DNA from: an uncultured virus (IMG/VR IMGVR_UViG_3300025012_000071)
Taxonomy: Duplodnaviria; Heunggongvirae; Uroviricota; Caudoviricetes
Strand: one strand, 5' to 3'
IMG/VR virus record: IMGVR_UViG_3300025012_000071
DNA: 64,000 nucleotides
In this document: in pieces, positions 96-23,300 of the stretch
Numbering within the stretch: position 1 is the first letter of the stretch
Layout of the letters: every line of letters begins with the position of its first letter
The notes under the pieces: model-generated
The model's database searches: none
What the model saw: the letters and a program-made list of their open reading frames with translations, nothing else
Told to the model about the DNA's origin: nothing
Program-made: the position numbers and the translations under genes

Positions 96-123
96 TGATC
101 CGATAATAAATATTATGTCAACT
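96..123 (+). other. dif-like XerC/XerD recombination site
   Basis: TGATCCGATAA-TAAATA-TTATGTCAACT has the 11-6-11 layout; right arm differs by one base from the B. subtilis dif arm TTATGTAAACT. Confidence 0.75.
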
Positions 124-488
124 AGCAGGAACCTTGTAACGTGCGTAGTTGCTGGGTTTCTCTGTTTACAGGTACTATTACTGGTACCAAAAACGCCAAT
201 TGTCCTGCTGTGGTGGACATTTCACCGTACCTGCTCCACTTCACAGGCGCAGGGTTGTGACACTGTATTGTACGCACAGAGCGCAGCGCATACATGAGCA
301 GGAGCGCGAGCGCACGTATTTAGCAGGATATTCGCCAAAAAGAGGGGGTGGGGGTCAAACACCCCCCGGTATGGATTGGCGGGACTCCTGGCGGTGGTAC
401 CTGTACCTTATGCTATCACCATCTAAACAGTTACGCATTTCATAAACTACCAAAAGTCAGTTAACTACGTAATAAGGAGAGAACTCAA

Positions 489-674
489 ATGATAGGCAAT
501 GAAATAGATGTTTCTGTATCTGAGGAAATAGACAGAGAATACATCAACATCAATATATCATTCAGCAGATTCGCCTTACTCGATATTGGTTATGACAATA
601 TTATCGACATAGCAAGAGATAAGGCAAAAAGTCTAGTTGACAATGATTCAGTTAAGTTTCCTAAGTACGATTAA
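489..674 (+). CDS. hypothetical protein
   Basis: 61-aa ORF with AAGGAG RBS. Confidence 0.6.
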   Translation: MIGNEIDVSVSEEIDREYININISFSRFALLDIGYDNIIDIARDKAKSLVDNDSVKFPKYD

Positions 675-694
675 TCGAGAACGGAGGTGTTATC

Positions 695-1162
695 ATGTGT
701 AGCAACGACATACATTATCAAACTCTTAAATCAGACAGTACCGCTAAGTCAAGTATTGATACATCTATGTGTATACCGTTTACGGTTGAACCTAATCCAT
801 TAAAGTTGACTAAAGAACAGAGTGATTTAATGAGAAGTAACATTACTTCAATGTTACGTAATTCTGTTAATAAAAACACTGACACTATATATGAAGTTGA
901 ACCAACTATCATTCTATGTCGCCCTGAATATTTAGATGCGGCAAAGCAAATATTGAATAATGCCAACCCTAAAATTGAGTGTGATAAAGGTTGGTTCTCT
1001 GTAACAGAAGAACATTTCAAAGAAGCACTTGTGGTAGCAAATGAAAGTTACATGCAGGTATATGTCAGTAGTGATTGGATATGTGACAAACCTAAACTCA
1101 TGGATCTAGTCAAATGGGCATACATCAACGGTATTGACTACAATGTTATACCGTTTAGTTAA
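695..1162 (+). CDS. hypothetical protein
   Basis: 155-aa ORF with GGAGGT RBS. Confidence 0.7.
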   Translation: MCSNDIHYQTLKSDSTAKSSIDTSMCIPFTVEPNPLKLTKEQSDLMRSNITSMLRNSVNKNTDTIYEVEPTIILCRPEYLDAAKQILNNANPKIECDKGWFSVTEEHFKEALVVANESYMQVYVSSDWICDKPKLMDLVKWAYINGIDYNVIPFS

Positions 1163-1185
1163 CTGATAAATAACAAGGTGATCTT

Positions 1186-2784
1186 ATGACCGATCAACAA
1201 AAGGAAAAGAAAAAACTATCCGCTCAGAAGTTAAGGGAAAAAGCGTCCTTAAAGGTTGAGTTGGAATTTCGTAAATCCTCCAAAAGTGTAGAGTATTTTA
1301 TAGATAAATACGCCTACATAGAGGATAGAGATGTTCCTGACTTAGTTGCTAAACTTAATCTATGGGACGGTCAGAAGGAAGCGTTAAGGAAGATTATTGA
1401 CAGTAAGTTGTCTATTATTCTTAAAGCGCGGCAGTTGGGTTTTACTTGGTTATCTCTTATTTACGGATTACACGGGGTTATATTCCGACCCGGTTATTCG
1501 GTTGTTGCTCTATCTAAGAGGGAAGAGGATGCTAAGGAACTTATCAGACGTATTTGCTTTATTCTGAGGTACTTACCTTCGTGGATGATTCGTCACGTTA
1601 AAGGTACTCCGAAGCAATATCCTAACCCTACATGGGATTCAACGGTATTGTCGATTACTATCTATCATAAAGGCAAGGAACCTGCTGTTTTTAACGCTAT
1701 GTCTGCCGGTCCCGATAGTGGACGTTCTTTTACGGCAAACCTTGTAATATTGGATGAATGGGCGTTTCAGATGTTTGCTAGAGATATTTGGTCTGCTGCT
1801 TATCCGACAATTAACCGTCCTACTGGTGGACAGGTTATTGGGTTGTCTACCGCTAAAAAAGGTACTTTATTTGAGGAAATATTTTGGAAGGCGTACAACG
1901 GTGAGAATACGTTTACGCCTATATTTATGCCTTGGAGTACCGACCCTAGACGTACTCAGGATTGGTATGAGCAGGTTAAAAAAGACTTACCTCATAGTTA
2001 TATGGCAGAGTATCCAGCGACTCCAGAAGAGGCGTTTACTGCCGGTGAAGGGCAGTTCTTTAAAGAGTTTCGTCGTGATGTGCATGTCGTTAAACCATTT
2101 AAGATACCGTCCTGGTGGAAAAGGTTCTGCTCTTTGGACTATGGACTTGATATGACCGCCTGTTATTGGTGGGCAGTTTCACCGGATGGCATTTTATATG
2201 CTTATCGTGAATTGTATCAATCAGACTTAACATTAAGTCAAGCGGCGAAAAAGATTATCTCCATGACACCTAAAGACGAGAAAATTAGTTATACGGTTGC
2301 TTCTCCTGACTTGTGGAATAGGCGGCAAGAGACAGGGACAAGCGGTAGGGAGATAATGAATCGTGCTGGACTTAATAACCTTAGAAAAGCAAAACATGAG
2401 CGCAAGGCAGGGTGGAGAGCAGTAAGAGAGTATCTGTTGGTTAGAGAGGAAAAGCAGGACGCTATAACCGATGAAGGTATAAAAACCGAGATTTCTTTTA
2501 CCGCTAAACTAAAGATATTCGATACCTGTAAAAATATGATACGTTGCTTGCCGTTGTTAGAGCATGACAAGAATGACTCTGAGGATGCGGCAGATACTCC
2601 ACACGAGGTGAGTCACAGTAACGAATCCCTTAGATATTCAGTAATGTCAAGACCTCCCATCTCTAAGGATGAAAAGTATTCATTTCCCGATGATATGTCT
2701 TTATCTGAGCAGTCAGCAGTTTTAAATAATATTGCGTTTGAGAAAGAATATGAGAAATTACAGGAACATATTGTAGGTTTTTAA
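1186..2784 (+). CDS. terL: terminase large subunit
   Basis: Walker A KARQLG, Walker B VILDE, coupling motif LST, C-terminal RNase H-like nuclease (LDYG). Confidence 0.95.
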   Translation: MTDQQKEKKKLSAQKLREKASLKVELEFRKSSKSVEYFIDKYAYIEDRDVPDLVAKLNLWDGQKEALRKIIDSKLSIILKARQLGFTWLSLIYGLHGVIFRPGYSVVALSKREEDAKELIRRICFILRYLPSWMIRHVKGTPKQYPNPTWDSTVLSITIYHKGKEPAVFNAMSAGPDSGRSFTANLVILDEWAFQMFARDIWSAAYPTINRPTGGQVIGLSTAKKGTLFEEIFWKAYNGENTFTPIFMPWSTDPRRTQDWYEQVKKDLPHSYMAEYPATPEEAFTAGEGQFFKEFRRDVHVVKPFKIPSWWKRFCSLDYGLDMTACYWWAVSPDGILYAYRELYQSDLTLSQAAKKIISMTPKDEKISYTVASPDLWNRRQETGTSGREIMNRAGLNNLRKAKHERKAGWRAVREYLLVREEKQDAITDEGIKTEISFTAKLKIFDTCKNMIRCLPLLEHDKNDSEDAADTPHEVSHSNESLRYSVMSRPPISKDEKYSFPDDMSLSEQSAVLNNIAFEKEYEKLQEHIVGF

Positions 2785-2807
2785 TAATAACCGAGGACGG
2801 TGTTATT

Positions 2808-2993
2808 ATGAAAGAGTATATATGTTTTTATCATCAAGAATTTGTAATGACTTATTGTGTTAAGGTAAAATCGCTAAGTTATGATGAATCTGAAAATAAG
2901 TTTAGAGAGTATTTGAAACAAAACGGCATTGCCTATATTAATGACAGTAATCTTATGATTGTTGAAGTTGATAATATATGTGAAATATTTTAA
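2808..2993 (+). CDS. small hypothetical protein inserted between terL and portal
   Basis: 61-aa AT-rich ORF preceded by the repeated ACCGAGGACGGTG element. Confidence 0.6.
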   Translation: MKEYICFYHQEFVMTYCVKVKSLSYDESENKFREYLKQNGIAYINDSNLMIVEVDNICEIF

Positions 2994-3005
2994 GGGTGTG
3001 TCTAA

Positions 3006-5117
3006 ATGGACTGGAAAAAACCATTTCGTGCTATTAAGAAGAAGGTGAAAGAAATAGTGGCACCTGTTGTAGAATACGATCAAGAGACTCTTGACTTGCT
3101 TAAATATTGGCAAGATCAGTTTGAGATTGACCGTCAGGCAAAGAAAAAATACGATCTTCTCATGGATTCATGGGAAAATATGTACAACGGTAATCGTGAG
3201 TTTGAGAATGTCAACAATCGGCAAGAAAAAGAAGCGAGAACGGTTGTTAACTTCCCTCGCTTAATTGTCGAAGCACTTATTGATATGACTATACCTGACC
3301 ACGACTTTAAACCCGTTACTGCTGCCGATGAAGTCCCTGTTAATGCCTTAAAGAGTTACGTCGGTTATGTGCTGAGAAGTTCCTCCCCTTCGCTTGAAGA
3401 AATGAATATGTCGGATGAGCGCAGAGTTTCAAAGTTAGGCGGTACGTTCAAAAAGGTTCACTGGAACAATAATATCAAACGTGCTGGGTATGTCGGTGAG
3501 ATTGAGATTAGTAACCCTCACCCGAAGGATATTATACCTAACAAGTCGTCTATTAACTTCGGCGACGATATGGAACATTATCATCATCCGGTTAACCGCA
3601 CACAGAAGTATATCCTCCGTAAATGGAAAGATATAACGAAGGATATGTTAGAGGAAAAGTCGATACTGTACGCCGAGTATGACGAGATTATGGGCGACCA
3701 AAGAATAACTACCGTTAACGACACTACCGGAGTTTCTAAGGATACTGGACTTGGTAAATATACTATCGTTGAGACTACCTACCGGGACGACGACGGAGAT
3801 ATTTGTAAACTGTGGTGGTCTGGTGATTTGCTAATTAAGCACCTTCCAAAGTTCTTTTATCGTAGGGACGAGGACGGGGAACCGTACAAAACTGAGACTA
3901 TTGAAGCAGGTACACAGGTTCGTAGGGGTTTGGACGATCAGGGCAATGTTGCCTATCGTGTTGTTGATACCGAAACTGAGGCAGAATACTACATACCTAC
4001 CTGCTGGGATATAGTCTATCAACCTTTTATTATGCGTGATAAGTGTTGTTGGGGTATATCCATTATGGAAGATGTTTGGGATTTGCAGGAGAGTATTAAG
4101 AAAGCGGTCCATATGTATGAAGAATCTTTCCTTCGTGGCAGGAAGAAGATTCTAACCTCTTCCACAGAAATAGCAAGAAAACTTATGGACCCAACATCTG
4201 AAATAATCCATGTTAATGACGTAGGAGAGGTTAAGGAAGTTGATTTAAGTACAAATATTGACGGCATTCAATTGGTTGATAAATTCAAAGAATGGTTGCA
4301 ACTTATAACCGGCGTAACCGATGCCTCGTTGGGCGTTCATCAACCGGGCGTAACATCAGGCGACCAGGCGCAGGCGTACATTAGTCAGTCAAGTAACAAA
4401 TTAGCAATTAAGTCTGCTTATAAGTCAACCTCATACAAGACACTTTACCGCACTATTGCGGAGTTTGCGTTGGCGTTTTGTGATGATGATCGTCCTTTCC
4501 GCATTACCGGAGAGAAGGGCGAGAACAAATACGGTCAGTTTAACCGCTTATCCATGCTTCGTGATGTTAACGGCGATTTAATCTATCCTGACTTTGATAT
4601 TGAGATTTCAGCAGAAGTTGGATTTATGAAGAATAAGTCTGAAATGATGAATTCTATTGTTTCTCTTGCAGGGCAGGGACGTTTTGAACCTACTCCCGGC
4701 AATATGCTGATACTGAAAATTCTTGATAAAATCGGTGTTCCGCACCTTAAAGAAGTTATCGGGCAGATGGAGCAGGACATACAGCAGGCACAAGAGGCCC
4801 AAGCGCAGCAGGAAGAGCAGGCAAAACAGATACAAGAACAGCAACTAAAGCAAAGTACTGATATGATGCTTGCTAAACAGCAGCATGAAAAAGAACTTGC
4901 CGTTATAAAGCAGCAGGGCGAATTAAACCGTCAGCAGCAATCGCACGACCTCGAAAGTGATAGAGAGGTTATGAGCGGAGAGTTGCAGCAGGACGCAGTT
5001 ATGCAGTTTATGGATAAGTTGAATCAGATTAAGGAGCAGGATCCCAATGCCTTTATGCAGATTATGCAGTTACCGACAGATCAGCAGGTACAGGCGGTAA
5101 TGAATTTAGCGAGTTAA
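3006..5117 (+). CDS. portal protein (P22-like, Gln-rich coiled-coil C-terminus)
   Basis: 703 aa after terL; motifs VNFPR..VE, G..KVHW, GISI.ED..DLQ, ITGV...SLG. Confidence 0.85.
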   Translation: MDWKKPFRAIKKKVKEIVAPVVEYDQETLDLLKYWQDQFEIDRQAKKKYDLLMDSWENMYNGNREFENVNNRQEKEARTVVNFPRLIVEALIDMTIPDHDFKPVTAADEVPVNALKSYVGYVLRSSSPSLEEMNMSDERRVSKLGGTFKKVHWNNNIKRAGYVGEIEISNPHPKDIIPNKSSINFGDDMEHYHHPVNRTQKYILRKWKDITKDMLEEKSILYAEYDEIMGDQRITTVNDTTGVSKDTGLGKYTIVETTYRDDDGDICKLWWSGDLLIKHLPKFFYRRDEDGEPYKTETIEAGTQVRRGLDDQGNVAYRVVDTETEAEYYIPTCWDIVYQPFIMRDKCCWGISIMEDVWDLQESIKKAVHMYEESFLRGRKKILTSSTEIARKLMDPTSEIIHVNDVGEVKEVDLSTNIDGIQLVDKFKEWLQLITGVTDASLGVHQPGVTSGDQAQAYISQSSNKLAIKSAYKSTSYKTLYRTIAEFALAFCDDDRPFRITGEKGENKYGQFNRLSMLRDVNGDLIYPDFDIEISAEVGFMKNKSEMMNSIVSLAGQGRFEPTPGNMLILKILDKIGVPHLKEVIGQMEQDIQQAQEAQAQQEEQAKQIQEQQLKQSTDMMLAKQQHEKELAVIKQQGELNRQQQSHDLESDREVMSGELQQDAVMQFMDKLNQIKEQDPNAFMQIMQLPTDQQVQAVMNLAS

Positions 5118-5143
5118 TAACGGAGAACCGAGGGGGATTAATC

Positions 5144-5419
5144 ATGGAAAATCATATCGAAGATGTGAAAAGAGCAAATAAAGTTCTTGTTACTTTACAG
5201 TTCTTTGATGGCGACGAATATATCTGTAAGTATAATAAGGGTATAGAGTTTGATAATTGCATCGGTACGTTTGGTAAAATTAAAACATTTCAATCCGTAG
5301 TAAAGGCGTTATATCGCACTTTTCAGCAACTTATTGGAGTTAACATCAAGGAAAAACATAGCACGGTTATTTTTACCAATATAACTGAATCAGCGGAGGT
5401 AAATAATGCAACTAACTGA
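5144..5419 (+). CDS. hypothetical protein
   Basis: 91-aa ORF with GAGGGG RBS. Confidence 0.6.
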   Translation: MENHIEDVKRANKVLVTLQFFDGDEYICKYNKGIEFDNCIGTFGKIKTFQSVVKALYRTFQQLIGVNIKEKHSTVIFTNITESAEVNNATN

Positions 5420-5540
5420 CCAAGAAAAAAAAATCATCGAAGAATTGCGCAACCTTGGAGGATGGGGAACGCTTACCGTCAAAGTGAAGGGCGGCAGGGC
5501 GGTTATGATTAGTCCTACCAAGGATATTAAACTTGACTAG
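5406..5540 (+). CDS. DUF2292/YezD-like small protein
   Basis: MQLTDQEKKIIEELRNLGGWGTLTVKVKGGRAVMISPTKDIKLD*, GGAGGT RBS; (F/W)G.+.+.+..G.+..I....+K+ pattern. Confidence 0.6.
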   Translation: MQLTDQEKKIIEELRNLGGWGTLTVKVKGGRAVMISPTKDIKLD

Positions 5541-5551
5541 AGGTGATAAGT

Positions 5552-5650
5552 ATGGCAGGTTGTAAAGGTAAAGGAAAGGGCATGAAGGGTATGCCTAAGT
5601 CTGATAAGAAGGAAATGGGCATGGGCAAGGGTTACGGTAAGAAGAAATAA
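5552..5650 (+). CDS. Lys/Gly-rich basic peptide
   Basis: MAGCKGKGKGMKGMPKSDKKEMGMGKGYGKKK*, GAGGTG RBS. Confidence 0.6.
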   Translation: MAGCKGKGKGMKGMPKSDKKEMGMGKGYGKKK

Positions 5651-5667
5651 CCGAGGACGGTGTTTAA

Positions 5668-5919
5668 ATGATGAAAATTTTTAAAGATAGTTTTAGTCTA
5701 TCCTACTTGTTAAGCGGAAGCAATTCAATTAATCCTGACCATGCATATGAATTATCTTGCGCTTTTTATGATTGGATGGTTGAAAATTGCGCAGACAGTA
5801 AAATGGTTCACGACGTAATGGTTTTAAATGGTTTTTATCAAACAGCAATGCCTAAACCTGTTTATGACAAAATTAAACCTTGGATTGATAGGTATAAACA
5901 AGAAACATCAATTAAATAA
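5668..5919 (+). CDS. hypothetical protein
   Basis: 83-aa ORF preceded by second copy of ACCGAGGACGGTG. Confidence 0.6.
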   Translation: MMKIFKDSFSLSYLLSGSNSINPDHAYELSCAFYDWMVENCADSKMVHDVMVLNGFYQTAMPKPVYDKIKPWIDRYKQETSIK

Positions 5920-5942
5920 CCAATCCTTAGTAGGAAAACCAC

Positions 5943-6005
5943 AGGGATAGGGTGTATCAGAGTGCCGTTATTGGTATTGTGATATGCTCTATCCCTATTT
6001 TTATT
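5943..6005 (+). terminator. long G-U-rich hairpin with U tract
   Basis: AGGGATAGGGTGTATCA..AGTGCCG / TGGTATT..TGATATGCTCTATCCCT followed by ATTTTTATT. Confidence 0.7.
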
Positions 6006-6023
6006 GCCTAAATTAAGGAAATA

Positions 6024-6164
6024 TCATGTCTTATTGTTTTGGTTATCTAGCCAATCTTTAAGTGCTATCATAACTGCTCCTTGCAATGTCATCCCGTTAT
6101 TGATGCATACTCTTTTTACCTGTTTAATTAATTCTTCATCAAGTCTTATATTGATCTGTTTCAT
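6024..6164 (-). CDS. ribbon-helix-helix regulator (copy 1)
   Basis: MKQINIRLDEELIKQVKRVCINNGMTLQGAVMIALKDWLDNQNNKT*, AAGGAGGT RBS; absent from the ORF track because <60 aa. Confidence 0.8.
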   Translation of the reverse strand: MKQINIRLDEELIKQVKRVCINNGMTLQGAVMIALKDWLDNQNNKT

Positions 6165-6244
6165 AAAATAACCTCCTTATAGCAATATATAGATTGCTAT
6201 ATTACATATATTCTGCTATAATTATAGCATAGGAGGGATGTTTT

Positions 6245-6859
6245 GTGAAGGAAGAAATTATCGGCAGGTCATGTACGGTATGTGGTGAGTGGAAATTGTT
6301 TTCCGATTTCAATAAAAACAGGGGAAGAAAATATGGATGTAGTAATGTTTGTAAAGTTTGCAAAAAGAAAATAGATAAACATTACTATGAGAAAAACAAG
6401 GAGAAAATAATAAGGCAAACAAGTGAATACCATAAGAAAAATCCAGAAGTAAAAAAGAAGTGTTGTGATAACTATAGGGCAAAAAATAAGGACAAAATTA
6501 GAGAAAGTGATAAATTATATCGAAAACATCATTTTAATGAAAGATATAAATATAATAAACTATATTTTTTAAAAAATCCTGATAAGATAAAAATATATGC
6601 CCAAAGGTATCGCAATAGATTACTTAACGCTTCTGGAAATTATACTCGCCAGGAATGGATAGATTTATGTAGTAAATGTGGTAATAGGTGTATTTGTTGC
6701 GGATTGGAAGTAAAATTAACAGTAGATCATATTATACCACTATCCAGGGGTGGTTCTAATTGCATAGACAATATACAACCATTATGTAAAAATTGCAATT
6801 CAAGTAAAAACAACAAAATAATAGATTATAGAAAAAAATTTACAAAAGATGCTCAATAG
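6245..6859 (+). CDS. HNH endonuclease
   Basis: N-terminal CxxC..CxxC; C-terminal CICCG...TVDHIIPLSRGGSN...NIQPLCKNCNSSK. Confidence 0.9.
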   Translation: MKEEIIGRSCTVCGEWKLFSDFNKNRGRKYGCSNVCKVCKKKIDKHYYEKNKEKIIRQTSEYHKKNPEVKKKCCDNYRAKNKDKIRESDKLYRKHHFNERYKYNKLYFLKNPDKIKIYAQRYRNRLLNASGNYTRQEWIDLCSKCGNRCICCGLEVKLTVDHIIPLSRGGSNCIDNIQPLCKNCNSSKNNKIIDYRKKFTKDAQ

Positions 6860-6893
6860 AGTGTCTTTTTTTTATTGAAAGGAGGTGATATTA

Positions 6894-7040
6894 GTGGCCA
6901 AAAATCTCGATAAACCTATGCCTTGTTCAGGCACCTTCACTTACGGAAATACAGGAAGCAGACAGACTGATGCGACTCGAGTAATCCGCGGTGGTGACTT
7001 ACGCAGTCGTCCCGGTAAAAACAACGGTGCTGTTAAATAG
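6894..7040 (+). CDS. small hypothetical protein
   Basis: MAKNLDKPMPCSGTFTYGNTGSRQTDATRVIRGGDLRSRPGKNNGAVK*, AAAGGAGGTGA RBS. Confidence 0.7.
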   Translation: MAKNLDKPMPCSGTFTYGNTGSRQTDATRVIRGGDLRSRPGKNNGAVK

Positions 7041-7179
7041 TTAAGGCAGGGTAAAACCTGCTTTTCCTATTTACCTACATAACATCGCTCCGCTTCAGGG
7101 TGACGGTTGGAAATAGACAACGGACACGCCGGAAAGACGGTGAATATATCGCTGGCGAGCGTAAACGTGGGGTGTAATC

Positions 7180-8016
7180 ATGGCAGAAGAATTAAACAAT
7201 GACAGCGTAAACACTGAGGTAGTCGCTGATCCTCAAACAGACATTGATACTAACGAACAAACCGATACCGGGGACGTAACCGGCACTCAACAAATGAGTG
7301 ATGCTGAGGTCGTTGAACAGCAGAAACAGAAGCAGACACAGGATCAGAACAGGGCGTTTGCTCAGATGCGTAGAGAGGCGCAAGAGGCAAAGCGTAAGGC
7401 AGACGAACTTGAACAGTGGAAACGTGACTTTGAGCAGAAGAATAACGCACAGCAACAGAAACAGTTGCAGGCAGATATGGACGCTCAAAGGAAGAAACTT
7501 GCTGCAGAGTTAGAAGAACAGGGATTTCCTGCCGCACAGATTAACGAGTATTTGAAGTTAGACCCTGCTTTTCAGCAGATGCAGTCAGAGTTAAACGCCA
7601 ATAAGCAACAGTTAGAGCAGGAAAGATACCTGAGAAATAGGCAGGCGGCAGAGCAGCAGATCGTGAAGGACCATGCTTATCTAAAGGGTAAATACGGTGA
7701 TATTGTGCCGGACTTGGACGCACTTGACCAAGCAACCGTTGATATGGTGCATAGCGGTATGCCGTTAAAATCGGCGTGGTTAACTGCTAATGAGGATGCT
7801 ATTGCCGAGGCGTTGCAGAAGAAGGCGGCGCAGAAGGTTATTAAACAGGTTGGCAGTAAGGCACACTTGGGTACTGAGAAGTCGAATGATAGTACCGACT
7901 TGGGTACTCAGGTTAGTTTGAGCGCGGAACAGATGAATGTCTGGAAAAATCTATTTCCCAATGATACCGATGCTCAGATTAAAAAACGTGTCTTGGGTAG
8001 GCAAAAGAAAAAATAG
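7180..8016 (+). CDS. capsid scaffolding protein
   Basis: Acidic N-terminus, N..FA..RR motif, long coiled coil, position before capsid genes. Confidence 0.8.
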   Translation: MAEELNNDSVNTEVVADPQTDIDTNEQTDTGDVTGTQQMSDAEVVEQQKQKQTQDQNRAFAQMRREAQEAKRKADELEQWKRDFEQKNNAQQQKQLQADMDAQRKKLAAELEEQGFPAAQINEYLKLDPAFQQMQSELNANKQQLEQERYLRNRQAAEQQIVKDHAYLKGKYGDIVPDLDALDQATVDMVHSGMPLKSAWLTANEDAIAEALQKKAAQKVIKQVGSKAHLGTEKSNDSTDLGTQVSLSAEQMNVWKNLFPNDTDAQIKKRVLGRQKKK

Positions 8017-8031
8017 TTTGGAGGGTTCAAA

Positions 8032-8457
8032 ATGACTTTAAAACATAGAGGAAATATTGACACTGGTGATTCAAAAGTAAAGATAATTGATCACTTTTAC
8101 ATGACAGATGCAGAGGCGGCTGTAGTGGGGCGTGCTTATAAATTAACTACAGCACGATGGACTAAGGCGGCAACAACAGACAGAATTTATGCAATTTGTA
8201 TTAAGGCAACTGTTGCCGGTACTGACGTTCTTGGCACTATGGCACTCGTTAAGTCTGGCGACATTATCGAGGCAGACTATACCGGAACCGCTGATGCCGC
8301 ATTTATAGAAGGACTTGAATTGGCCGTACTTGATGCAAACGGTGATAATGTTGATGCGGCAACCGTTACTGGTGGTCACTTGGTTGTCATTAATAAGGAT
8401 ACGGAAAACAAAAAGGTTAAGTGCGTTGCACTTAAAAACTTTACTCAGGCCGACTAA
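8032..8457 (+). CDS. head decoration/cement protein
   Basis: 141-aa beta-rich protein between scaffold and major capsid gene. Confidence 0.6.
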   Translation: MTLKHRGNIDTGDSKVKIIDHFYMTDAEAAVVGRAYKLTTARWTKAATTDRIYAICIKATVAGTDVLGTMALVKSGDIIEADYTGTADAAFIEGLELAVLDANGDNVDAATVTGGHLVVINKDTENKKVKCVALKNFTQAD

Positions 8458-8502
8458 TTGGTTGGTCTGTTTTATTTTTAAAAAAATTCGGAGGTGCAGT
8501 AA

Positions 8503-9474
8503 ATGACTGTAAATAACCAAAACACAGGTGCTTTTCAAAAGGCAATGGGTTTATATGAAGTACCGATCTTAGAATATTGGCAGCAGAAGTATGTTGATTC
8601 GATTAAAGAAAGTATGATCCCCATGCTTTTTTCCAGAGTAAATAGCAACAACCCTTCTGAGGCAATTAGTGAGCAGGTAGGTAAGGTAACATTCAATAAG
8701 TGGCAGGGTGAGTTTAACTACTACGATCTTAAAGACGGATCTGCCAGGACGTGGACCCCGGTGCCATGGGAGGCGGGACTTGCCTATGACAGGTTTACCC
8801 TTTCCAATATCAAACTTATTAACTTACAAAATGACACTTCTCACTTTGCTATTGAGGCCGCAAGGTTCCGCGAAAGATGCGCTGCCGGCATTTTTACCTA
8901 TGCAGATCAGACTTCTTTCTCGGTTGATGGAAACGTGTTGGATTGGACAAGAACTGCTAACGGACTACCTCTTGCCAGCAATGCTCAGACTTCTTCTAAT
9001 TATTCAACCACACAGGATAATTTGGAATCCTTGGAATTAAATGAGGAGAATCTCGAAATTTTATGTCAAAAAATGTTTGACCTGAAAGACGAGAACGGAC
9101 GCGAGGCTAACCTCCAGCCTGACTGCCTTGTAGTGCCTACAGCTTTGCGTAAGAAGGCTTTGGAGTTGATTGGTGGAGAAGGTAAGGTTGATACTAGCGA
9201 CAACAACCCCAATATTTACAATGGCAGTATGAAATTGATGGTTTGGAAAAACTTCCGTCGCCAAGCAGGAAAAACAGGTCAACCGTGGGCAGTTATTGAT
9301 TATGAAAGAGCAAAAGAGGCAATGAAGTGGATTAATCGTCTTGAATCAGGTGAGGATTTTGAGGTAACAAGTAATAAGGACTGGAAGAATCAGAAGTGGG
9401 AACTTGGTTCTATTATGTGGTTTAGCGCAGGCCCATACTCTTTTCACCCGTTCCAGTTTTCAATTCCGGCGTAA
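8503..9474 (+). CDS. major capsid protein (Mu gpT-like HK97 fold)
   Basis: Motifs NGLPLAS, L.EENLE......M...KDENG, PDCLVVP.AL...A, N..NIY. Confidence 0.85.
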   Translation: MTVNNQNTGAFQKAMGLYEVPILEYWQQKYVDSIKESMIPMLFSRVNSNNPSEAISEQVGKVTFNKWQGEFNYYDLKDGSARTWTPVPWEAGLAYDRFTLSNIKLINLQNDTSHFAIEAARFRERCAAGIFTYADQTSFSVDGNVLDWTRTANGLPLASNAQTSSNYSTTQDNLESLELNEENLEILCQKMFDLKDENGREANLQPDCLVVPTALRKKALELIGGEGKVDTSDNNPNIYNGSMKLMVWKNFRRQAGKTGQPWAVIDYERAKEAMKWINRLESGEDFEVTSNKDWKNQKWELGSIMWFSAGPYSFHPFQFSIPA

Positions 9475-9480
9475 TAGGGG

Positions 9481-11088: not shown

Positions 11089-11131
11089 ACACCTAACGGT
11101 GTCTTTTAATTTTCCCACAAGGAGGTACAAA

Positions 11132-12114: not shown

Positions 12115-12124
12115 GAGGTGCTTT

Positions 12125-15036: not shown

Positions 15037-15110
15037 TCAACTAACGAAGGTGCGAGAGTTTCAATCAGGGAGGCGTTTTGCCTCCCATTTTACATAAAGT
15101 AGGTGATCTA

Positions 15111-15950
15111 ATGTCATTCACCCTAACAAACTGCAAGGCACTCGTTGACTCATGGACACAAGAGGCGGTAAGCAATGCCGATCTTCTCCTATGGGGCAGG
15201 GAGTGTCTAAGAGATAATATACCATCGAGACTATGGTTAGAAAGCACAAAACTATTCAGAGCATCGGCAAAGAAATTCTACAGTCTGCCGAGTGACTTCG
15301 TGAGCATGGTTAGTCTATTCACAGGCATAGGTTATCCTGCCGGACTTACTGTAACCGCAGAAGGTACGACAGGTTCAACGGCATATGGATACCGAGTAAC
15401 CTCCATAAACGACGATAACGAAACAATTGCCTGTACTGAGATTAAGACTACCTCCGGCAATGCTACATTATCCGAAACAAACTACAACGCCCTCTCATGG
15501 ACAGCGGTAACAGGTGCATCCTCCTATGCCATATATCGCACGACAGGCGGTGCTACACAGGGGTTAATCGGTACAGCAACTACAACTACCTTTAGTGATA
15601 CAGGACTTGCAGGCGACGGCGAGAGCGTACCTATTGAGGATACGACAGGCATTAAATACACCAACTTCACTATTCGCAACCGCAAAATATCCTTCTATGA
15701 TGCAGACACATATGCTATGTCCTACATTGCACGTCCGACGGTTGCAAACATAACCGACAATGTACCACTAATTGATGCCTGCGAGTATGCAATAGCCAAA
15801 TATATTGCTTCTCGATACCGCAGCGCAGAAGATTCGGACGATGCCGACGCTTCAAGGTGGTTGCAGGAATTCTATAATTCCATTAAGAACCTTATCGATG
15901 AGAATGAACTCGATAGCAACGATTCATTTCAGATAAAGGCGGTGTGGTAA
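15111..15950 (+). CDS. head-tail adaptor with inserted Fn3/Ig-like domain
   Basis: YSLPSDF adaptor motif, LSWTAVTGASSYAIYR Fn3-like insert, helical C-terminus. Confidence 0.65.
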   Translation: MSFTLTNCKALVDSWTQEAVSNADLLLWGRECLRDNIPSRLWLESTKLFRASAKKFYSLPSDFVSMVSLFTGIGYPAGLTVTAEGTTGSTAYGYRVTSINDDNETIACTEIKTTSGNATLSETNYNALSWTAVTGASSYAIYRTTGGATQGLIGTATTTTFSDTGLAGDGESVPIEDTTGIKYTNFTIRNRKISFYDADTYAMSYIARPTVANITDNVPLIDACEYAIAKYIASRYRSAEDSDDADASRWLQEFYNSIKNLIDENELDSNDSFQIKAVW

Positions 15951-17401
15951 TGCCTCCTGTTATTCCTAAACGTACCGGAGCAACAAGAAAACAATCCATC
16001 GATATTAACGGATTTCGAGGCATAAACGCACAGCACACAAGAAAGATAAACGAGTTCTCAGATGCTAAGAATATCATCGTTACTAACGGCGTTATTGACA
16101 CAAGGGGCGGTTACTCCTTAGTCAGTGCGCCGTTTACTACTACCATTAAGAGTCTACACATGGGGGCAAAGGTAAGTTTAGGGTCTCGTATGCTTGCTGA
16201 GGTTGGCACGAGTTTGTGGTATAGGTTAACTTCTGCTGGCAGTTGGGTAGAGATAATTAGCGTGCCTTCCGCTAACTACGGTTTTGGTTCATGCACATGG
16301 ACAGACCCTGCTACCGGGACGAGTCACCTTATCTTGGCAGGTGGCACTACGTCGTGGGCGTATAACATTGATGTGGGTACTGGTGTGTCTCAGTTGATTA
16401 ATTTAGATTTGGGCGACGTGCCGTTCATGGAGTTTTGTTGTGTGTATATGGGGCATATTTTCGTTTGGGGACCTAATAGCGCATATCCGAACAGGGCGTA
16501 TTACTGCGGTGTAGATACTACTGTAGTGCCTAACCAGATAAGTAAAGATTATTGGCCGGAAGAAAATATATTTAAGATTTCAGACGCGAGTGAACCGATA
16601 CTAAATTGTATACCCTTTGCTGATCACTTACTCATCATAACTAAAAAGAGTTATTATCGCTTACTTAGCGATGAACATCCATTTCTAAATATTTACAAAA
16701 CGGGCGACATAGGCGCATACGGCGTGAAATGCTCGGTCAAGTTGGGCAACTATGCCTTCTGGTTAACTGATGAAAAACAGGTTGTCGCATACGAGGGCAA
16801 CACGGCAGAAGTCATTTCTGATAATATCGAGATCCTGCTTGCTGACCATAGTTTCACTAACGTATTTACCGTAGGTTTTGCTAATCAGTTTTGGCTAGTC
16901 CTGCCCAATAGTCCGGCAGGATATACAACCTGCTTCATTTTCGATACTCAGGAGAAGGCATGGTTTAAGTGGATATATGCAAAAGTATTCACTTCGGCAA
17001 CTGTTTTTGGCGAACCAATGGGAACGCAGACACTACAATTCGGTACTTCCGATGGCAAGATTATTAAGATGGACAGTTCTACCTTAGACGGTACTGTTGC
17101 TATAGAAAGTGAGTTTATCATCGGTCCGGTCAATTCGTCTAACCGCAAAAACAAGTTCAAGAAGATGTATTTCGTTGTTGAACCTACTACCGATTATACG
17201 CTAAATGTCTATTCTAAGAGCGACAGGGATGCGGAGAAAGCGGCGGTGGTAGTTACGGTAACTAATGGTAGTCAAGATAGCGTATACGCACGCTTAGGCG
17301 GTGTAAAGGGGCAGAACGTACAGTTCAGGGTTAACGGTACCAATAGGATAACGGGACTTAAATCTGCCTCTCTGGCGGAGATTTTGGGGGCGGTCAAATA
17401 G
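15944..17401 (+). CDS. tail nozzle/DNA stabilisation protein (P22 gp10/T7 gp12-like)
   Basis: F.GIN....I...E...AKN......G.I..R.G start; beta-propeller character; position. Confidence 0.7.
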   Translation: MVMPPVIPKRTGATRKQSIDINGFRGINAQHTRKINEFSDAKNIIVTNGVIDTRGGYSLVSAPFTTTIKSLHMGAKVSLGSRMLAEVGTSLWYRLTSAGSWVEIISVPSANYGFGSCTWTDPATGTSHLILAGGTTSWAYNIDVGTGVSQLINLDLGDVPFMEFCCVYMGHIFVWGPNSAYPNRAYYCGVDTTVVPNQISKDYWPEENIFKISDASEPILNCIPFADHLLIITKKSYYRLLSDEHPFLNIYKTGDIGAYGVKCSVKLGNYAFWLTDEKQVVAYEGNTAEVISDNIEILLADHSFTNVFTVGFANQFWLVLPNSPAGYTTCFIFDTQEKAWFKWIYAKVFTSATVFGEPMGTQTLQFGTSDGKIIKMDSSTLDGTVAIESEFIIGPVNSSNRKNKFKKMYFVVEPTTDYTLNVYSKSDRDAEKAAVVVTVTNGSQDSVYARLGGVKGQNVQFRVNGTNRITGLKSASLAEILGAVK

Positions 17402-17833
17402 ATGGCAAGCACAACACCTAACCTAATTAAGATAGGTCAGTCTAACATCAAGAATCCTAAAAAGATCGTCGATACTCACGATACCAATATGGAGAAAATG
17501 AAAGTTTTCATGACTACGGTTGCTGTTGCGGCAGGCATAGGTACGCCTACAAATGAAAGGGTTTATCTTGAAAGCGGTGAGGGTGCTTATAACTACACCG
17601 CTGCGGTTACATTTACCTTTGTTAATAGTTACACCGTCAAACCTGTAGTGACAGTATCAGCAGAATACAGTCTAGCAGACTTCCCGAGTCCATTGGTACC
17701 TGCTTTTCAATTGGTGCAGACTGGGGGCGTATATACAGGCGTTATCGTGACACCTCATAGCGATAATTTACCTGCTGTAGCAACTGCTTATTATCATGTC
17801 CATGCCGTGTGTCGTGGGAAGGTGACTGCATAA
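17402..17833 (+). CDS. tail-associated protein
   Basis: 143 aa, TF...Y..KP.VTVS motif, within structural operon. Confidence 0.55.
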   Translation: MASTTPNLIKIGQSNIKNPKKIVDTHDTNMEKMKVFMTTVAVAAGIGTPTNERVYLESGEGAYNYTAAVTFTFVNSYTVKPVVTVSAEYSLADFPSPLVPAFQLVQTGGVYTGVIVTPHSDNLPAVATAYYHVHAVCRGKVTA

Positions 17834-18936
17834 TGCCTAATGCAGCGTCACAGCGGACATGGGGAAAGGATATAAATGCTGTACTGTTAAACAAAGAATC
17901 AGGCGATAAGAGGTGTGTTGTGTGGAGAATTGGCAGAACGATTTACCTGGGTAAATCAGATACCGACGGAACAAACTGGGTACCTAAAATAGTTGTTACT
18001 TTGCCATACGACAGCATTGAACCTTATCCATTAGTTGCTCATATTTATAGCGGCGAAATTATAATATATGCCAATATCATTGACAATGGTTTTAATAAAG
18101 CAGCAGTAATTAGATTTGATTTAAATGGTGAAAATGTAACTTACAAAACTATTTTTGACTATTACCCATATAGGATTTATCTTGACTTAGATCATAATGA
18201 GGTTAGATATATTCGACCTGGCATTGGTGGTGTATGGGTAGGATTTAGTGATTTTTATGGAAATAACTATGCCGAAAATCAGTTTACCGCTAGGTCTCTC
18301 GGAGTATATTTTGAAATAATAAGAGCAGGTAATAAATTATTATATTTTTTTAGAGTCAGCACAACACTATATGTTGCTCAATCTGATTTGGACTGTACTA
18401 ATTTCGTTCAAAGGTCAACGGGTAAGGGAGTATCTAATATAGGATTTGTCGCTGTAGATGGTTCTTATGCTTATACCACGTATTTTACTGCAAGTGCTTT
18501 TGGTGTTGGTAGAGTTAGTTCAGTAACTTCTACAACCACAGATTTTTCATTTATTGAAACTACATCAATTGGTTTCACATACTATGATATGTTCAAAGAA
18601 AATGGCGAATTATACGTTATTGAAGTATCGCAGGATAATAACGGCGTAAACTATATAGTTGTTGGTACGTGTGATTTGGGATTATCTAGTTTTTCCGAAG
18701 AATCTTACGAGGTCGGTGACTTTATTGACGATGTAAAGGTTGATGCAAGCGGAGATTATTATAAATACACTTGGAGTCAAGAACAGTTATATAATGAAGG
18801 AAATATTAGTTCACTTCACTTGTGGACATACCCAGGCAACGGCGCAATAACCCCAATAACCGCACAATGTAAAATAACAGATATACTCACCGATGCAAGC
18901 ACAGGTAAGACGATTACACTTCTAGGAGGTGTTTGA
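17833..18936 (+). CDS. beta-rich tail/receptor-binding protein
   Basis: Aromatic beta-propeller-like repeats (SD.DG.N), AT-rich. Confidence 0.5.
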   Translation: MPNAASQRTWGKDINAVLLNKESGDKRCVVWRIGRTIYLGKSDTDGTNWVPKIVVTLPYDSIEPYPLVAHIYSGEIIIYANIIDNGFNKAAVIRFDLNGENVTYKTIFDYYPYRIYLDLDHNEVRYIRPGIGGVWVGFSDFYGNNYAENQFTARSLGVYFEIIRAGNKLLYFFRVSTTLYVAQSDLDCTNFVQRSTGKGVSNIGFVAVDGSYAYTTYFTASAFGVGRVSSVTSTTTDFSFIETTSIGFTYYDMFKENGELYVIEVSQDNNGVNYIVVGTCDLGLSSFSEESYEVGDFIDDVKVDASGDYYKYTWSQEQLYNEGNISSLHLWTYPGNGAITPITAQCKITDILTDASTGKTITLLGGV

Positions 18937-20365
18937 AATAGCAACAATTGATTACGACAAAATGATTTCCGCTAGGGCATTTGGCGAAGCGGCAGGGCAA
19001 CAGGTTAATTGGTTGGGTGGAGACGTTGGTAAAAGAAGTTTTACCATGGGAGATACTTTATACCGTGAGGATACCGGAGATTTTAGTATTAACCCAGCGA
19101 ATAACAGGGCATATGTCAATCCGAGTAAAGCGACGATGCTTAATCAGGCAAAGGCATACGGTAGTTTAAATGCCGATACGCTTAATCAATATAGACCAAT
19201 GGTTAGTGATATGGTCGGACAAACCTATAAACCTAAGTTCTCCGCACTTGAAAGGCAGTACAATAATCGAGAGACATTGGCGAACCAAAGACAAAGAGCA
19301 ATAGATAACGACTTTAGTTGGAGTAAGACTAAGACAGGCATTAACCAGAGAAACGACAGAGAAAAACAGGCATATAGTTTGGCTAAATATGGCGGTTCTG
19401 ACTATATGAGTCGTAAACTTGAAGAATCATATCAACCGATCTATGCTGAAATGGAAATGCAGAAAAATAACGCATTATTGAACCTTAGCGAAAACTATAA
19501 TATGGGTATGAGTGAACTTGATGGGCAGTATGGTGACTTACTGGATAGTCAAACAGCAGCAGAGAATAAGATGCTCATGGATATTTATGACAGAAACCAA
19601 AAGAACGCTTTAGGACTTGCCGACGCTACGAGCAACTACGGCAAAGACATTGCCGAAGCGGATAAAGCGGAGTTTGACAGGGATATTGATTATGCTACAA
19701 CATTTAAAAAGGATCGCAATACAGGAGAATATACCCTTGGTGGCAGGGGCGACATTATTGATATGACCGGAGTTGATCCGGAAACAGGTCAACCGTCATA
19801 TTCTGCAATGAAGGATGAAAGACAGTTTGCTTTAGATAAGGCAACGAAAGAAGCGCAGATCAATAAGTATAATCTCGATGCAAGCGGCAGGGATACGGTA
19901 AGCGAGAGACAGAACGCTGCTACTGCTGACCTTCTCAATAAGGCGGTTGGTCGGTACAATGAGAATATGCAGAATGGTTTGAAGTATCCCGGTTACTATA
20001 CAGTTAGTTCGTTGCTGAGTGATCCTGAATGGATGATTGAGGCGAAGAAGTCAGGCGCAAACAGCAAGGATGCTATTGATATGTTGTTGACTTCGATTGG
20101 GACAACTCCTTCTGAATTCTTTGCTGGGGAAACTGCAAAACTATTGCCGCTATATAACCAATTGGGCGGCGGTGATAGCGCATTAATGAGCAAAGCGTTA
20201 GCGGCAGCGCAGAAAGATCCGAACTTCGGTATTGACCCCGAAACGGATAGAGAACTGATTAACTACTACAAGGGCATATTAAGTGGCGGTAGTGGTGCTA
20301 TGACTACAGCAGGCACACCTACAACCGGCGCAACCGATGAAGAAATACAGCAATACCTCAAATAA
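18929..20365 (+). CDS. internal virion (ejection) protein
   Basis: 478 aa, helical Gln/Ala-rich, precedes giant protein as in podoviruses. Confidence 0.6.
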   Translation: MFEIATIDYDKMISARAFGEAAGQQVNWLGGDVGKRSFTMGDTLYREDTGDFSINPANNRAYVNPSKATMLNQAKAYGSLNADTLNQYRPMVSDMVGQTYKPKFSALERQYNNRETLANQRQRAIDNDFSWSKTKTGINQRNDREKQAYSLAKYGGSDYMSRKLEESYQPIYAEMEMQKNNALLNLSENYNMGMSELDGQYGDLLDSQTAAENKMLMDIYDRNQKNALGLADATSNYGKDIAEADKAEFDRDIDYATTFKKDRNTGEYTLGGRGDIIDMTGVDPETGQPSYSAMKDERQFALDKATKEAQINKYNLDASGRDTVSERQNAATADLLNKAVGRYNENMQNGLKYPGYYTVSSLLSDPEWMIEAKKSGANSKDAIDMLLTSIGTTPSEFFAGETAKLLPLYNQLGGGDSALMSKALAAAQKDPNFGIDPETDRELINYYKGILSGGSGAMTTAGTPTTGATDEEIQQYLK

Positions 20366-20379
20366 GCGAGGTGATATAA

Positions 20380-23300
20380 TTGTCTCAACAAAAACTATAT
20401 GAAGCGGTCAGGTCGGGTAGAGTTAAGTTAACTGATTTGAACGATGATGGTAAGCAGGCACTAAGGGAATATATGTCTACTAAAGACAAACCTGCTACAC
20501 CTAAACAATCTACCTATAGTAGAATTGATAGTAAGGTTGGCGGCATACTTCCGGGCGGTAGCGACTTTAAACCTTCTGAGTATGGCATAAGCGATAAGTT
20601 TGCGAAAGATAATCCGGCAATTAGTAGGGGATTGGCGACAGTCGTTAGTCCTCTAAAGGCGGTATTTGACATACCTTCCGTTGAACGTGCTAGTCAGGCA
20701 GGCAATGAAGTTAGATTCTTGACGGAAAATCCAGATAAGACGGACACAGGTTCAAGTACCAAAAACATGGTTGCTGACTTTATCGGGGGTGCTACTGGTT
20801 TTATTGGTGGCAGTCCCGGTAGCATTATGCCCTCTGCAGGTGGTGCGTTGTTTGGTGGTGGTGCTAAAGCAACAGGTAAGATATTACCTAAGACAACTAG
20901 ACCGATAGTAAGAACGGCGGCAGAAATGGCAGGAGGTAGCGTTGTCTATGATTTAGGTAATGCAGCAGCAAATGGACATTCACCTACAGTTGAGGACTTG
21001 GGAGTTGTGGCAGCGCAAAATGCTTTATTGGGTGCAGCAACCTATGGACTAGGTAAGGGTGTAAGTAGGTTGTTTAAGGATAAAACAGAGATACCTTTAA
21101 CAAAAAAAGAAGTCACCTCTCCAAAAGTCAAGCAGGACATACCTGCCGACATTAACTTAGCAAGAAACGTAGTCAAGAACACAACCAACTTAGGCAGGAT
21201 AAACAGGATAATTGATGCTTACCCTGAGTTAGCGGCAGAATACCCACAGTTTCGTTTACAGCAGGGCGACAAGGTTATCTTACCTAACGGCAAAGAAGCG
21301 ACCGTTAAAACAAATGACAGGATGATTATACAGGTTGATGTAGATGGTAAGGCTGCTAGTGTTGGGCGTAAGGTTGTTAATGTTCCGGAGGTTAAAACTG
21401 AGGCGGTATCTGAAGTAGCAACTCCTGAGATAAAACAGCAACCAGTTATCAACGATGTGCCGAGAGTAAATAACCGAAGCGGTGCTGATACTTTTGACGA
21501 TGCGGTTAGTGAAACAGTTAGCGACAACTACAATAAAGCGGTTGAACTTGTTACGCAAAACAATAGTCCTTCTATCTCATTACTACAAAGAAACCTAAAA
21601 ATAGGTTATGCCGAGGCAGCAAGACACATTAACCGCATGGAGTCAGAAGGTATTGTTAGTGCCTTTGATGGCAACGGTAGAACTGTTTTGAAGCAGGGCA
21701 ATAAAACAGCGACAGACATTGAAACTGCTTTTAACGATTTGGGCAATGCTGCACAAGAAGCAGGATACAAGAAAACTATGGATGATGTTGCTAAGCAGGG
21801 ATATGTGTCGTTTGCTAAGAAAGAATCTGCCGATTTATTCCGCAACGATCCTAGATATGAGGGATGGAAGGAAGAACAGGTTAATGGTGAATATCGGTTT
21901 AGTCCACAAGAGAACGTACCTTCCATTACTACTCAAATTAAGGTTAATCGTGGCAGTAAGGGCGTAGCAAACATAACACTACCCGATGCCGACCATGCCC
22001 TATTGTTTGAGTTAGATAAGCAAATGAAGATGCTTAATAACGAGAAAACATATTCGCAGGAATTGGAAGTCTTGGCGGAGCAAAACTACAACAAACTTAA
22101 AGACAAGTTTCCGGATCCCATCGGTACTGCCGACACTTACCGCAGGAGTGTTTTGAATGGTGCGAAGGATATTGAGAAGGACGGGACTTATGCGGCAGAA
22201 ACTTTTGAGGCGGTTAAGGCAAAACTTGATGCCGAGGCAAAACGATTTGATATTCCGGTAGATAAGAGAACATCTAAGAATGTCGGGGATAGAAAAGTTA
22301 ATGCTATGCAGTACAATCACCCCGAGTTGAAACCACATATTCAAGAACAGGCTAAAAACATCATGGGTGATCTTGCCGCATCATTAAAGGCAGCGCGTGG
22401 CGGTACTACCGTTTATGGCGAGAATACGGGCGGCGAAAACATTTCATTCGGTAATAAGCGCATGACTACTAATACTATTGCTAAGATATTGGACGAGCAG
22501 AAGGTTAGTTATGCCGACATTAATAACGCTTTACAGCGCATTATTGACGATGCAGGGCAGGAGAATGTTGCACTTGCTAAACGGATTGAGTTGCTAATTG
22601 ACGAGCATTTGACCGATGGATATACCGATATTTACGGTAATAAGTATCCTCCGAGTAAAGAATACGTCGATGCTAAAAACAAGGCGTATGGTACGGATAT
22701 TAAGTCAAAAGAACAGTATAAGGATATGTCAGACGAGGATTGGGCAGAGTTAGAACAGTTGCAGGGTGAGATAGAGGGTAAGGGTGACGTTAAGCAGGAA
22801 ACCCCTGAGTTATCCGCAGAGGTAGGCAATAAGTCTACATCGGAAGTTAAAACTATTCCTTCATATGATGAATTTAGTAATAAAGTCATGGATATATACA
22901 ATAAGCAAGAAAAGAAAGCATATGCCGAAGCAGACAAAAGGCAAGAGAAACTTATTGCCGAAAAAGAGAATATCCTTAACGGTATTATAGATGGCAGTAT
23001 TAGTCCCGACGAAATATTAAGCAAGCGTAAAGAATTGCGTATAACAAGAAACGATAACGGAACATATTCTTATAGTCGTGGTAGTAAAAAATATACCACA
23101 ACAGAACCTGTTGCCGATGTTGAAACTTTTAAACGAAACCTTGCTAGTGAATTAGTTGAGGATAATATTAAGAACATCAAGAGGAAAGATAAGTATGCAG
23201 GTGTTATTGATGCTGCAAGGAAAAATACGAATAAAGAATTAGGACTAGGTAGCGACACTATCTATGATAGTCATCAGGAAATGTACGATAAACTTTATGG

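Follow-up and report, generated by a model that had tools for sequence, protein, structure and literature searches.

The dif-like site behind terS

The DNA analysed here, called the window throughout, is a stretch of 64,000 nucleotides from an uncultured tailed virus (Caudoviricetes; IMG/VR record IMGVR_UViG_3300025012_000071). Near its first end, just behind the gene for the small terminase subunit (terS), lies a 28-bp sequence built like the chromosomal dif sites of the XerCD/FtsK system. Comparison of this sequence with chromosomal sites and with its counterparts in other phages supports its reading as a genuine, selected, host-type Xer site adjoining terS. The locus holds the following elements.

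1-80, + strand: 3' end of terS; the frame stops at TAG 78-80 and the window begins within the gene.
96-123, + strand: dif-like Xer core site, with an XerC-type arm (96-106), a central region (107-112) and an XerD-type arm (113-123).
124-430, no strand assigned: about 300 nt of conserved sequence, directly behind the site, in which no open reading frame (ORF) is convincing.
1186-2784, + strand: terL, the large terminase gene (phrog_2, E = 1.2e-33).

The letters of the site, TGATCCGATAA-TAAATA-TTATGTCAACT, follow an 11-6-11 design in which both 11-bp arms show an inner ATAA/TTAT symmetry about the 6-bp centre, and this design is kept in every variant found in the clade. The site begins 15 nt past the terS stop. 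In a near-identical record, G007, the gene is present at full length (147 aa) and matches the small terminase family phrog_4044 (E = 1.1e-37). A search with a loose dif pattern finds one exact match in the window, where chance alone would give 0.51 at one mismatch or fewer. No second dif-like site was found there, the next-best arm score being 16/22, and a half-site at 15087-15107 was rejected as a second site, lying within the conserved leader of the adaptor gene.

The chromosomal dif sites used for comparison are the predictions of Kono et al. (supplement of PMC3025954). The window site agrees with the predicted dif of Desulfotomaculum acetoxidans (Clostridia) at 24 of 28 positions, and its bases 5-26, 22 in a row, are identical to the predicted dif of Thermobifida fusca; either of these may not be the dif of the phage's host. 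Other phage sites come closer still to the same set of predictions: the variant in locus L234 matches D. acetoxidans dif at 27 of 28 positions, and the site of the unrelated phage G059 matches that of Pelotomaculum thermopropionicum, likewise at 27 of 28. A first-pass annotation of the window had described a 28-bp dif-like site at these coordinates, just behind terS, and the complete design, the match to D. acetoxidans and the family assignment of the neighbouring gene all bear it out.

Conservation of the site among relatives

A search with TerL yielded 55 viral loci. Every close relative that covers the place carries the site just behind terS and in the same orientation (L002-L006, L010, L012-L015, L019 and L055), and it is also present in the more distant L023 and in L057, a contig of a Pelotomaculum metagenome-assembled genome (MAG). 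In 1.58 Mb of examined loci, a 15-position core of the site occurs only at those clade sites, apart from one match with one mismatch elsewhere. An alignment of nine sequences leaves 18 of the 28 site columns invariant and shows a terS-side flank full of insertions and deletions. The site is likewise present in all 14 metagenome contigs that carry the neighbouring conserved block; its distance upstream of the block is about 155-170 nt in 13 contigs and about 635 nt in the remaining one, L299. Among these 14, the arms are unchanged while the central region differs.

Across variants the right arm is almost constant, TTATGT[A/C/T]AA[C/G]T, and the left arm is more variable. Chromosomal dif sites show the same bias, their XerD-type arm being better conserved than their XerC-type arm. 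The centres vary by sub-lineage (TAAATA, TATACA, TGTGCA, TGAGCA, TAGGTA and TGAACG), and TAAATA is the one kept in phages that have no recombinase, unrelated phages from the same samples included. The terS gene ahead of the site belongs to three PHROG families (4044, 309 and 606) with only the C-terminal end in common, and the site is kept throughout: phrog_309 is found in L002 (4396-4866) and phrog_606/GP3_package in L012 (3635-4102), and the terS of L278 lies at 1289-1732. The three families share just their last 26 or so codons, as if the DNA-recognition half of the protein had been swapped freely.

The block behind the site (124-430) aligns in nine relatives, with both outer flanks diverging, and is 92% identical to G002 over 199-426. 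It has no match in Rfam, and a conserved RNA fold was rejected for 124-440 on the evidence of eight relatives, where the covariation term (+2.74) gave no support. An origin, a promoter region or accessory DNA are guesses at its role.

dif-like sites across viral contigs

Sites of this type are common in viral contigs. A scan of viral contigs with a degenerate Clostridia-type dif returned at least 120 stretches, and 80 loci (L155-L234) were examined. Among the matches listed, to which all fractions in this paragraph refer, the free position of the left arm is T in most examined loci, in agreement with real dif sites, and a tyrosine recombinase (PF00589) is present in 9 of 50 contigs and in 3 of the 19 that are at least 90% complete. 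The neighbourhood of the site, from -1.5 to +2.5 kb, was assigned to PHROGs in 46 loci for 150 of 155 ORFs of at least 125 aa, leaving out L159, a relative of the window, and two further ORFs. A terminase gene lies near the site in 18 of the 46 loci and represents at least six TerL PHROG families. In contigs of at least 30 kb, a terminase is nearby in 7 of 27, compared with 2.9 expected (P ~0.02). The order terS stop, site, terL recurs in unrelated lineages, with the site in the same orientation in L168, L171, L194 and L234 and in the opposite one in L158 and L174; a terS stop followed by a site in the same orientation is also found in G059.

Two further arrangements were seen in this set. In L157 (~9998-11528) and L230 (~10001-11518), two unrelated viral contigs, the dif-like site adjoins a ParA gene, and one of the two, 39 kb in length, has terminal repeats and lacks an integrase; plasmid prophages resolved by host Xer proteins would be expected to show such a layout. 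The site also lies less than 500 nt from a contig end in 15 of the 80 loci, and the window itself starts 95 nt ahead of its own site. This position may be an effect of assembly and not a physical DNA end, as the contigs are mostly short and a variable flank breaks assemblies.

A dif-like sequence could also act without any recombination, as a dock that steers or stops an FtsK-type pump or unloads SMC-type complexes, or as the terminus of a circle replicated one way from an origin in the adjoining block. We consider this very unlikely. The conserved non-coding block does adjoin the site, the phage encodes an FtsK/SpoIIIE-type ATPase, and the cumulative GC skew rises through the window with small dips at 32-34 and 40-42 kb. 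The word GCAGGG, which resembles an FtsK-orienting polar sequence (KOPS) given in the excerpted text of PMC3130261, has 57 copies on the + strand against 5 on the - strand, spread over each of the three reading frames and non-coding DNA, and is the second most skewed of the frequent hexamers after the overlapping CAGGGA (40:3). Both arms and the 6-bp spacing are maintained, however, and this points to a complete recombination site. Phage FtsK/SpoIIIE ATPases do not generally accompany dif-like sites either: just 5 of the 46 records searched have one, the 46 being 42 dif-bearing contigs and four records with no confirmed site (G004, G005, G006 and G001). Finally, GCAGGG was discarded as a KOPS- or Chi-like word: a maximal-order Markov model does not single it out, and on this strand purine-rich words are skewed 4-7:1 in general. 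The skew of GCAGGG is weaker in G002 (29:10) and G003 (20:6).

The FtsK-gamma domain of the giant protein

The second element in question lies some 20 kb downstream of the site, in a giant gene.

20380-27216, + strand: giant protein of 2278 aa at the end of the structural module, a probable injected polyvalent or cargo protein.
21496-21933, + strand: swappable cassette with the gamma domain (about residues 373-518).
21523-21684, + strand: FtsK-gamma winged-helix domain (residues 382-435; Pfam PF09397).

The Pfam FtsK_gamma model matches residues 382-435 with E = 1.5e-17 and 63.5 bits, the cut-off being 30.6, and the domain matches FtsK gamma chains in the PDB (2j5o, 2ve8 and 2j5p) as well as an XerD-gamma fusion (5dcf) with E values from 4e-7 to 8e-6. 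The gamma winged helix that had been placed inside the giant protein is thus real, and it had been placed correctly. It is not joined to an FtsK/SpoIIIE motor here; the 2278-aa protein contains no ATPase family, and gamma is its sole Pfam domain above cut-off. The C-terminal 829 aa are nearest to viral protein clusters, and the nearest named domain is LPD38 (score 0.96), which is a lead only. In the excerpted text of Iyer et al. 2017 (PMC5512222), the FtsK winged helix-turn-helix (wHTH) is an infrequent double-stranded-DNA-binding domain of phage and plasmid polyvalent proteins, and LPD38 is phage-specific. The giant protein is probably packaged in the virion and injected.

The relatives differ in precisely this part of the protein. 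G003 has a giant homologue with conserved flanks in which residues ~373-518 are replaced by unrelated sequence with no match to the Pfam gamma model. In the G063 homologue the flanks are just about 42 residues apart, and gamma is missing. G002 has no giant homologue, and the same slot is filled by a 1063-aa LPD38 protein (E = 4.6e-33). In the distant relative G004, rated 100% complete, the site is absent and the giant homologue lacks gamma, which occurs as a separate 72-aa ORF (48317-48502); G004 also has its own 419-aa integrase. These comparisons indicate that gamma is an optional, swappable cassette, found among the relatives only in the window's sub-lineage.

A word-limited search for homologues of the cassette, covering shorter proteins only, gave a single match, a 286-aa fusion of an Mrr-type nuclease with gamma (P0002; 63% identity). 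That the closest gamma belongs to a nuclease fusion points to a generic DNA-binding module. In both the G004 ORF and the Mrr fusion, gamma stands without an FtsK motor. In the recognition helix, Pseudomonas GYNRAARMIEAME aligns with phage GYAEAARHINRME and TESRRA aligns with TQNNSP, with some positions differing.

Co-distribution of site, gamma and recombinase

Four sub-lineages keep the site, and they differ in what accompanies it. The window lineage, which includes G001 and G065, has gamma, no recombinase and the centre TAAATA. G063 has neither gamma nor PF00589 in its 46.7 kb (66% complete), and its site core is identical to that of the window. G003 lacks gamma and carries a 282-aa Xer-like recombinase (G003 20921-21769; L148), and its site has the centre TATACA; G002 also lacks gamma and carries a 281-aa Xer-like recombinase (G002 18172-19017; L144), and its site has the centre TGTGCA. 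The two enzymes are 51% identical, and that of G002 scores 219, 203 and 194 bits against the XerA, XerC and XerD models, all under the equivalog cut-offs. Both genes directly precede the adaptor gene and so occupy the place of the window's GH28 tailspike, and the gene of G002 follows a 376-nt gap after the preceding ORF. A role of the G002 enzyme as a tail-fibre invertase was rejected, as no convincing inverted repeats surround the gene. The diverged sites of G002 and G003, each beside an enzyme of its own, fit a site that follows its recombinase.

No enzyme of this kind is encoded by the window phage. Among 75 ORFs of the window with a length of at least 80 aa, no recombinase family was recognised, and both PF00589 and PF00239, the tyrosine and serine recombinases, are absent in G007 and in G001, a truncated twin of the window. 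In window orientation, G007 matches positions 34729-64000 at 99.94% and 1-1339 at 97.6%, with 6252 bp in between. It therefore bridges the 6252 bp missing from the window and closes the genome at about 70.25 kb, all of which is covered by the window and these two records together. The missing 6.25 kb, as read in G007, hold terS and small ORFs of no known function. The absence of a tyrosine or serine recombinase, claimed from the window, thus extends to the whole genome, and the integrase that might have lain in its unseen part is not there. Outside the clade, dif likewise follows terS in G059, a phage that comes from similar samples and is rated 100% complete by CheckV; it encodes neither gamma nor a recombinase of the tyrosine or serine type.

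The first-pass annotation had proposed a two-part system of dif site and injected gamma, and had named beforehand their co-distribution as a point on which it should be judged. The two do not travel together: gamma is present in one of the four sub-lineages that keep the site. The site occurs without gamma in G002, G003, G063, G059 and G054, gamma occurs without the site in G004, and both occur together in the window lineage only. As stated, the two-part system is not supported. That relatives keep the site without gamma makes gamma optional to the site. What remains is a pattern in which gamma and an own recombinase are complementary in three lineages, alongside cases with neither.

It is nonetheless conceivable that in the window lineage the gamma of the injected giant protein switches on host XerD at the phage site. 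Site and domain are both real, and isolated gamma activates XerCD at dif in E. coli (excerpted text of PMC3130261). The occurrence of gamma in the recombinase-less window lineage and of an Xer-like recombinase in the gamma-less G002 and G003 could mean that they are alternative drivers, but this complementarity spans three lineages only. G063 keeps an identical site core with a cassette-less giant homologue and no PF00589 in the part of its genome at hand, G059 keeps a site with neither driver, and G004 has a gamma with no site to act on. The nearest relative of the domain in the word-limited search is the one in the Mrr-type fusion, which points to a generic DNA-binding module, and some helix residues differ, with GYAEAARHINRME in the phage against GYNRAARMIEAME in Pseudomonas. 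A coupling of this kind is accordingly judged unlikely.

Search for integrated copies

A phage with no integrase and a site indistinguishable from chromosomal dif might instead integrate at the host's dif through host XerCD, as do the integrative mobile elements exploiting Xer recombination (IMEXs). The presence of a repressor and an anti-repressor in a genome that has no integrase anywhere fits such a lysogeny, and the TAAATA centre is common to unrelated phages of the same samples, as if all of them matched one host dif. A prophage at host dif was looked for in species genomes and in viral and metagenome contigs, and none was found. The scan of GTDB species genomes yielded distant TerL relatives only, at most 62% identical and in Clostridia MAGs, and no integrated copy; a loose site pattern was present there only in L057 (exact) and L104 (one mismatch). 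Phage DNA flanks every copy of the site examined on both sides, and there was no host junction or integrated copy in the viral contigs or in the 14 metagenome contigs carrying the site.

The runs in which the window occurs are groundwater, soil and sediment metagenomes, and the contigs of all 16 were compared with L002. X1 and X5 gave the one end that breaks off right after the site. It is no host junction and belongs to the phages G059-G061, which have a similar terS end and site and then diverge. In the Pelotomaculum MAG (G068), the site of the phage contig has the centre TGAACA and the likely chromosomal dif has TAGATA, which speaks against integration there. A dif with the centre TAAATA was found in none of 401 sampled genomes from the phylum of this MAG, a sample and not a proof of absence. 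Two fully canonical dif copies flanking a prophage would moreover be recombined by FtsK-activated XerCD at division, excising the prophage. Integration at dif is for these reasons held to be improbable. One metagenome contig of the clade, L296, is 142,368 bp long, about twice the genome length, and carries terS, a site at about 90,071 with the centre TGAGCA, and terL in the 8 kb of it that were read; such a contig could represent either a prophage flanked by host DNA or two genomes in tandem.

A proposed role for host Xer proteins on the phage's own DNA

The reading that we favour, with a probability of about 0.5, is that host XerC and XerD act through the site on the phage's own DNA, circularising it or resolving its multimers. 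In a phage with no recombinase of its own, host Xer proteins are the most likely agents to recombine phage sites, and two copies of the site would be their substrate. If the first headful cut is made near terS, the terminally redundant ends could be joined, turning the injected DNA into a circle, as Cre/lox can in P1. Alternatively, multimers of a replicating or plasmid-like form would be reduced to monomers. In the window's sub-lineage, gamma might help by activating XerD away from the septum. Xer binding, the recombination reaction, the packaging geometry and virion delivery are the parts of this scheme that we infer.

The placement of the site helps to weigh these uses. A position by terS is needed for cyclisation and is needed neither for dimer resolution nor for integration, so the link to the terminase favours cyclisation. 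Resolving multimers of a circular or plasmid-like form is, at the same time, the same chemistry as cyclisation, and the two are inseparable here. Of the three uses put forward in the first-pass annotation, circularisation and dimer resolution fit the data best, and integration is held to be less likely.

Several observations weigh against this role of the host Xer proteins. A TAAATA centre shared by phages that are unrelated would be expected if all of them recombined with one partner, the host dif, whereas self-recombination would allow the centre to drift; this favours integration. Only the first headfuls would have the site in their redundancy. The CI-like repressor and the anti-repressor suggest lysogeny, yet no partition genes were found. 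Lastly, the link to the terminase is moderate: among the matches listed, no terminase lies near the site in 28 of 46 loci, and hallmark genes are over-represented in short viral contigs.

The same data invite a much wider proposition, which is doubtful as it stands. Many tailed phages, in several unrelated lineages and on several host phyla, would keep a host-type dif at the start of the packaging module for Xer proteins to close or monomerise their genomes, and the present clade would have three interchangeable drivers: injected gamma (the window), an own Xer-like recombinase (G002 and G003) and host factors alone (G063 and G059). Should the sites work, the life cycle of many phages that lack an integrase would include one more step that depends on the host, be it genome closing, multimer resolution or integration. 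This would bear on host range, on the prediction of lysogeny and on the classing of metagenomic phages as 'lytic'. The clade itself offers a natural comparison of what such a site needs, since it occurs with gamma, with an own recombinase and alone.

Genome and lifestyle genes

The gene set of the window is that of a tailed phage of podovirus type, with terL, a P22-like portal, an SU10-adaptor-like gene and the 2278-aa protein. Beyond the loci already listed, the following features were identified.

3006-5117: P22-like portal.
13300-15036, + strand: GH28-type tailspike, directly upstream of the SU10-adaptor-like gene; the same slot holds the Xer-like recombinase cassette in G002 and G003.
15078-15950: SU10-adaptor-like gene.
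29814-30677: anti-repressor.
34122-35384: FtsK/SpoIIIE-type ATPase of 420 aa, without a gamma domain and separate from the giant protein.
42257-42826, - strand: candidate CI-like helix-turn-helix repressor (Pfam HTH_3; phrog_3 transcriptional repressor, E = 2.6e-9).

The candidate repressor and the anti-repressor hint at a temperate lifestyle. No partition genes of ParA/ParB type were seen in the annotation of the window and G007. The ATPase gene overlaps that of a Replic_Relax protein. Within the phage, the pair (34122-35994) resembles a module of plasmids or conjugative elements, and its conservation in G002 is 91-94%. A megablast of window positions 1-20000 against GenBank phages gave no match, and Rfam searches of the whole window and of positions 1-1200 detected tRNA only. 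The tRNA gene (32657-32732, - strand; Rfam tRNA, 62 bits) is read by ARAGORN as tRNA-Asn with the anticodon ATT. An A as the first anticodon base is unusual in bacteria. Nearby, at 33108-33446 (- strand), is a protein with a Tad2-like (Thoeris anti-defence 2) domain (Pfam E = 2.8e-20).

The tailspike region (13052-15060) is 99.85% identical in DNA to positions 67870-69878 of G054, an otherwise unrelated phage contig with a GC content of 26%. G054 also has a dif-like site, with the centre TAAAGA. The near-identical tailspike suggests a recent exchange, and the two phages probably have a host in common.

Comparison with known systems

In the literature, the use of host Xer proteins is described for plasmids and for small, non-tailed phages, namely filamentous phages, gokushoviruses and tailless vibriophages. 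A search of full-text literature, subscription journals not covered, returned no description of host Xer use by large tailed phages or of a dif copy beside terS. The host-type dif next to terS is a real, conserved and apparently undescribed feature.

The nearest model of the site itself is the chromosomal dif/XerCD/FtsK system, with which it shares the 28-bp 11-6-11 design and the agreement with D. acetoxidans dif. The phage site, in contrast, lies behind terS and not at a chromosome terminus. The IMEXs (CTX-phi, VGJ-phi, TLC-phi, gokushoviruses and tailless vibriophages) are likewise integrase-less viruses with a dif-like site, and TLC-phi even supplies its own activator of XerD, XafT, according to PMC9226527. 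These elements are small, non-tailed and found integrated at dif, whereas the present phage is a 70-kb tailed phage with a fully canonical site and a gamma unrelated to XafT.

The plasmid Xer sites cer and psi serve the resolution of multimers of an extrachromosomal replicon, a use to which the sites beside ParA in L157 and L230 bear a likeness. They differ from the window site, on whose XerC side no accessory-protein region was recognised, and the window phage showed no partition genes either. Xer-related recombinases do occur in plasmid prophages, as stated in the excerpted text of PMC8026635. The giant protein, for its part, resembles the polyvalent proteins of PMC5512222, in the excerpted text of that work, in being very large and composed of several parts, in its place at the end of the virion module and in its FtsK wHTH. 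It differs from them in having no Pfam domain besides gamma; its counterpart in G002 has LPD38.

In P1, the Cre/loxP system cyclises terminally redundant DNA and resolves dimers of the plasmid prophage, and its site lies near the packaging start. The window phage has no recombinase and would depend on its host for the same steps. Like P1, this phage, probably of headful type, has a site-specific recombination site close to where packaging would begin, and within the clade G002 and G003 carry a recombinase of their own, which is Xer-like.

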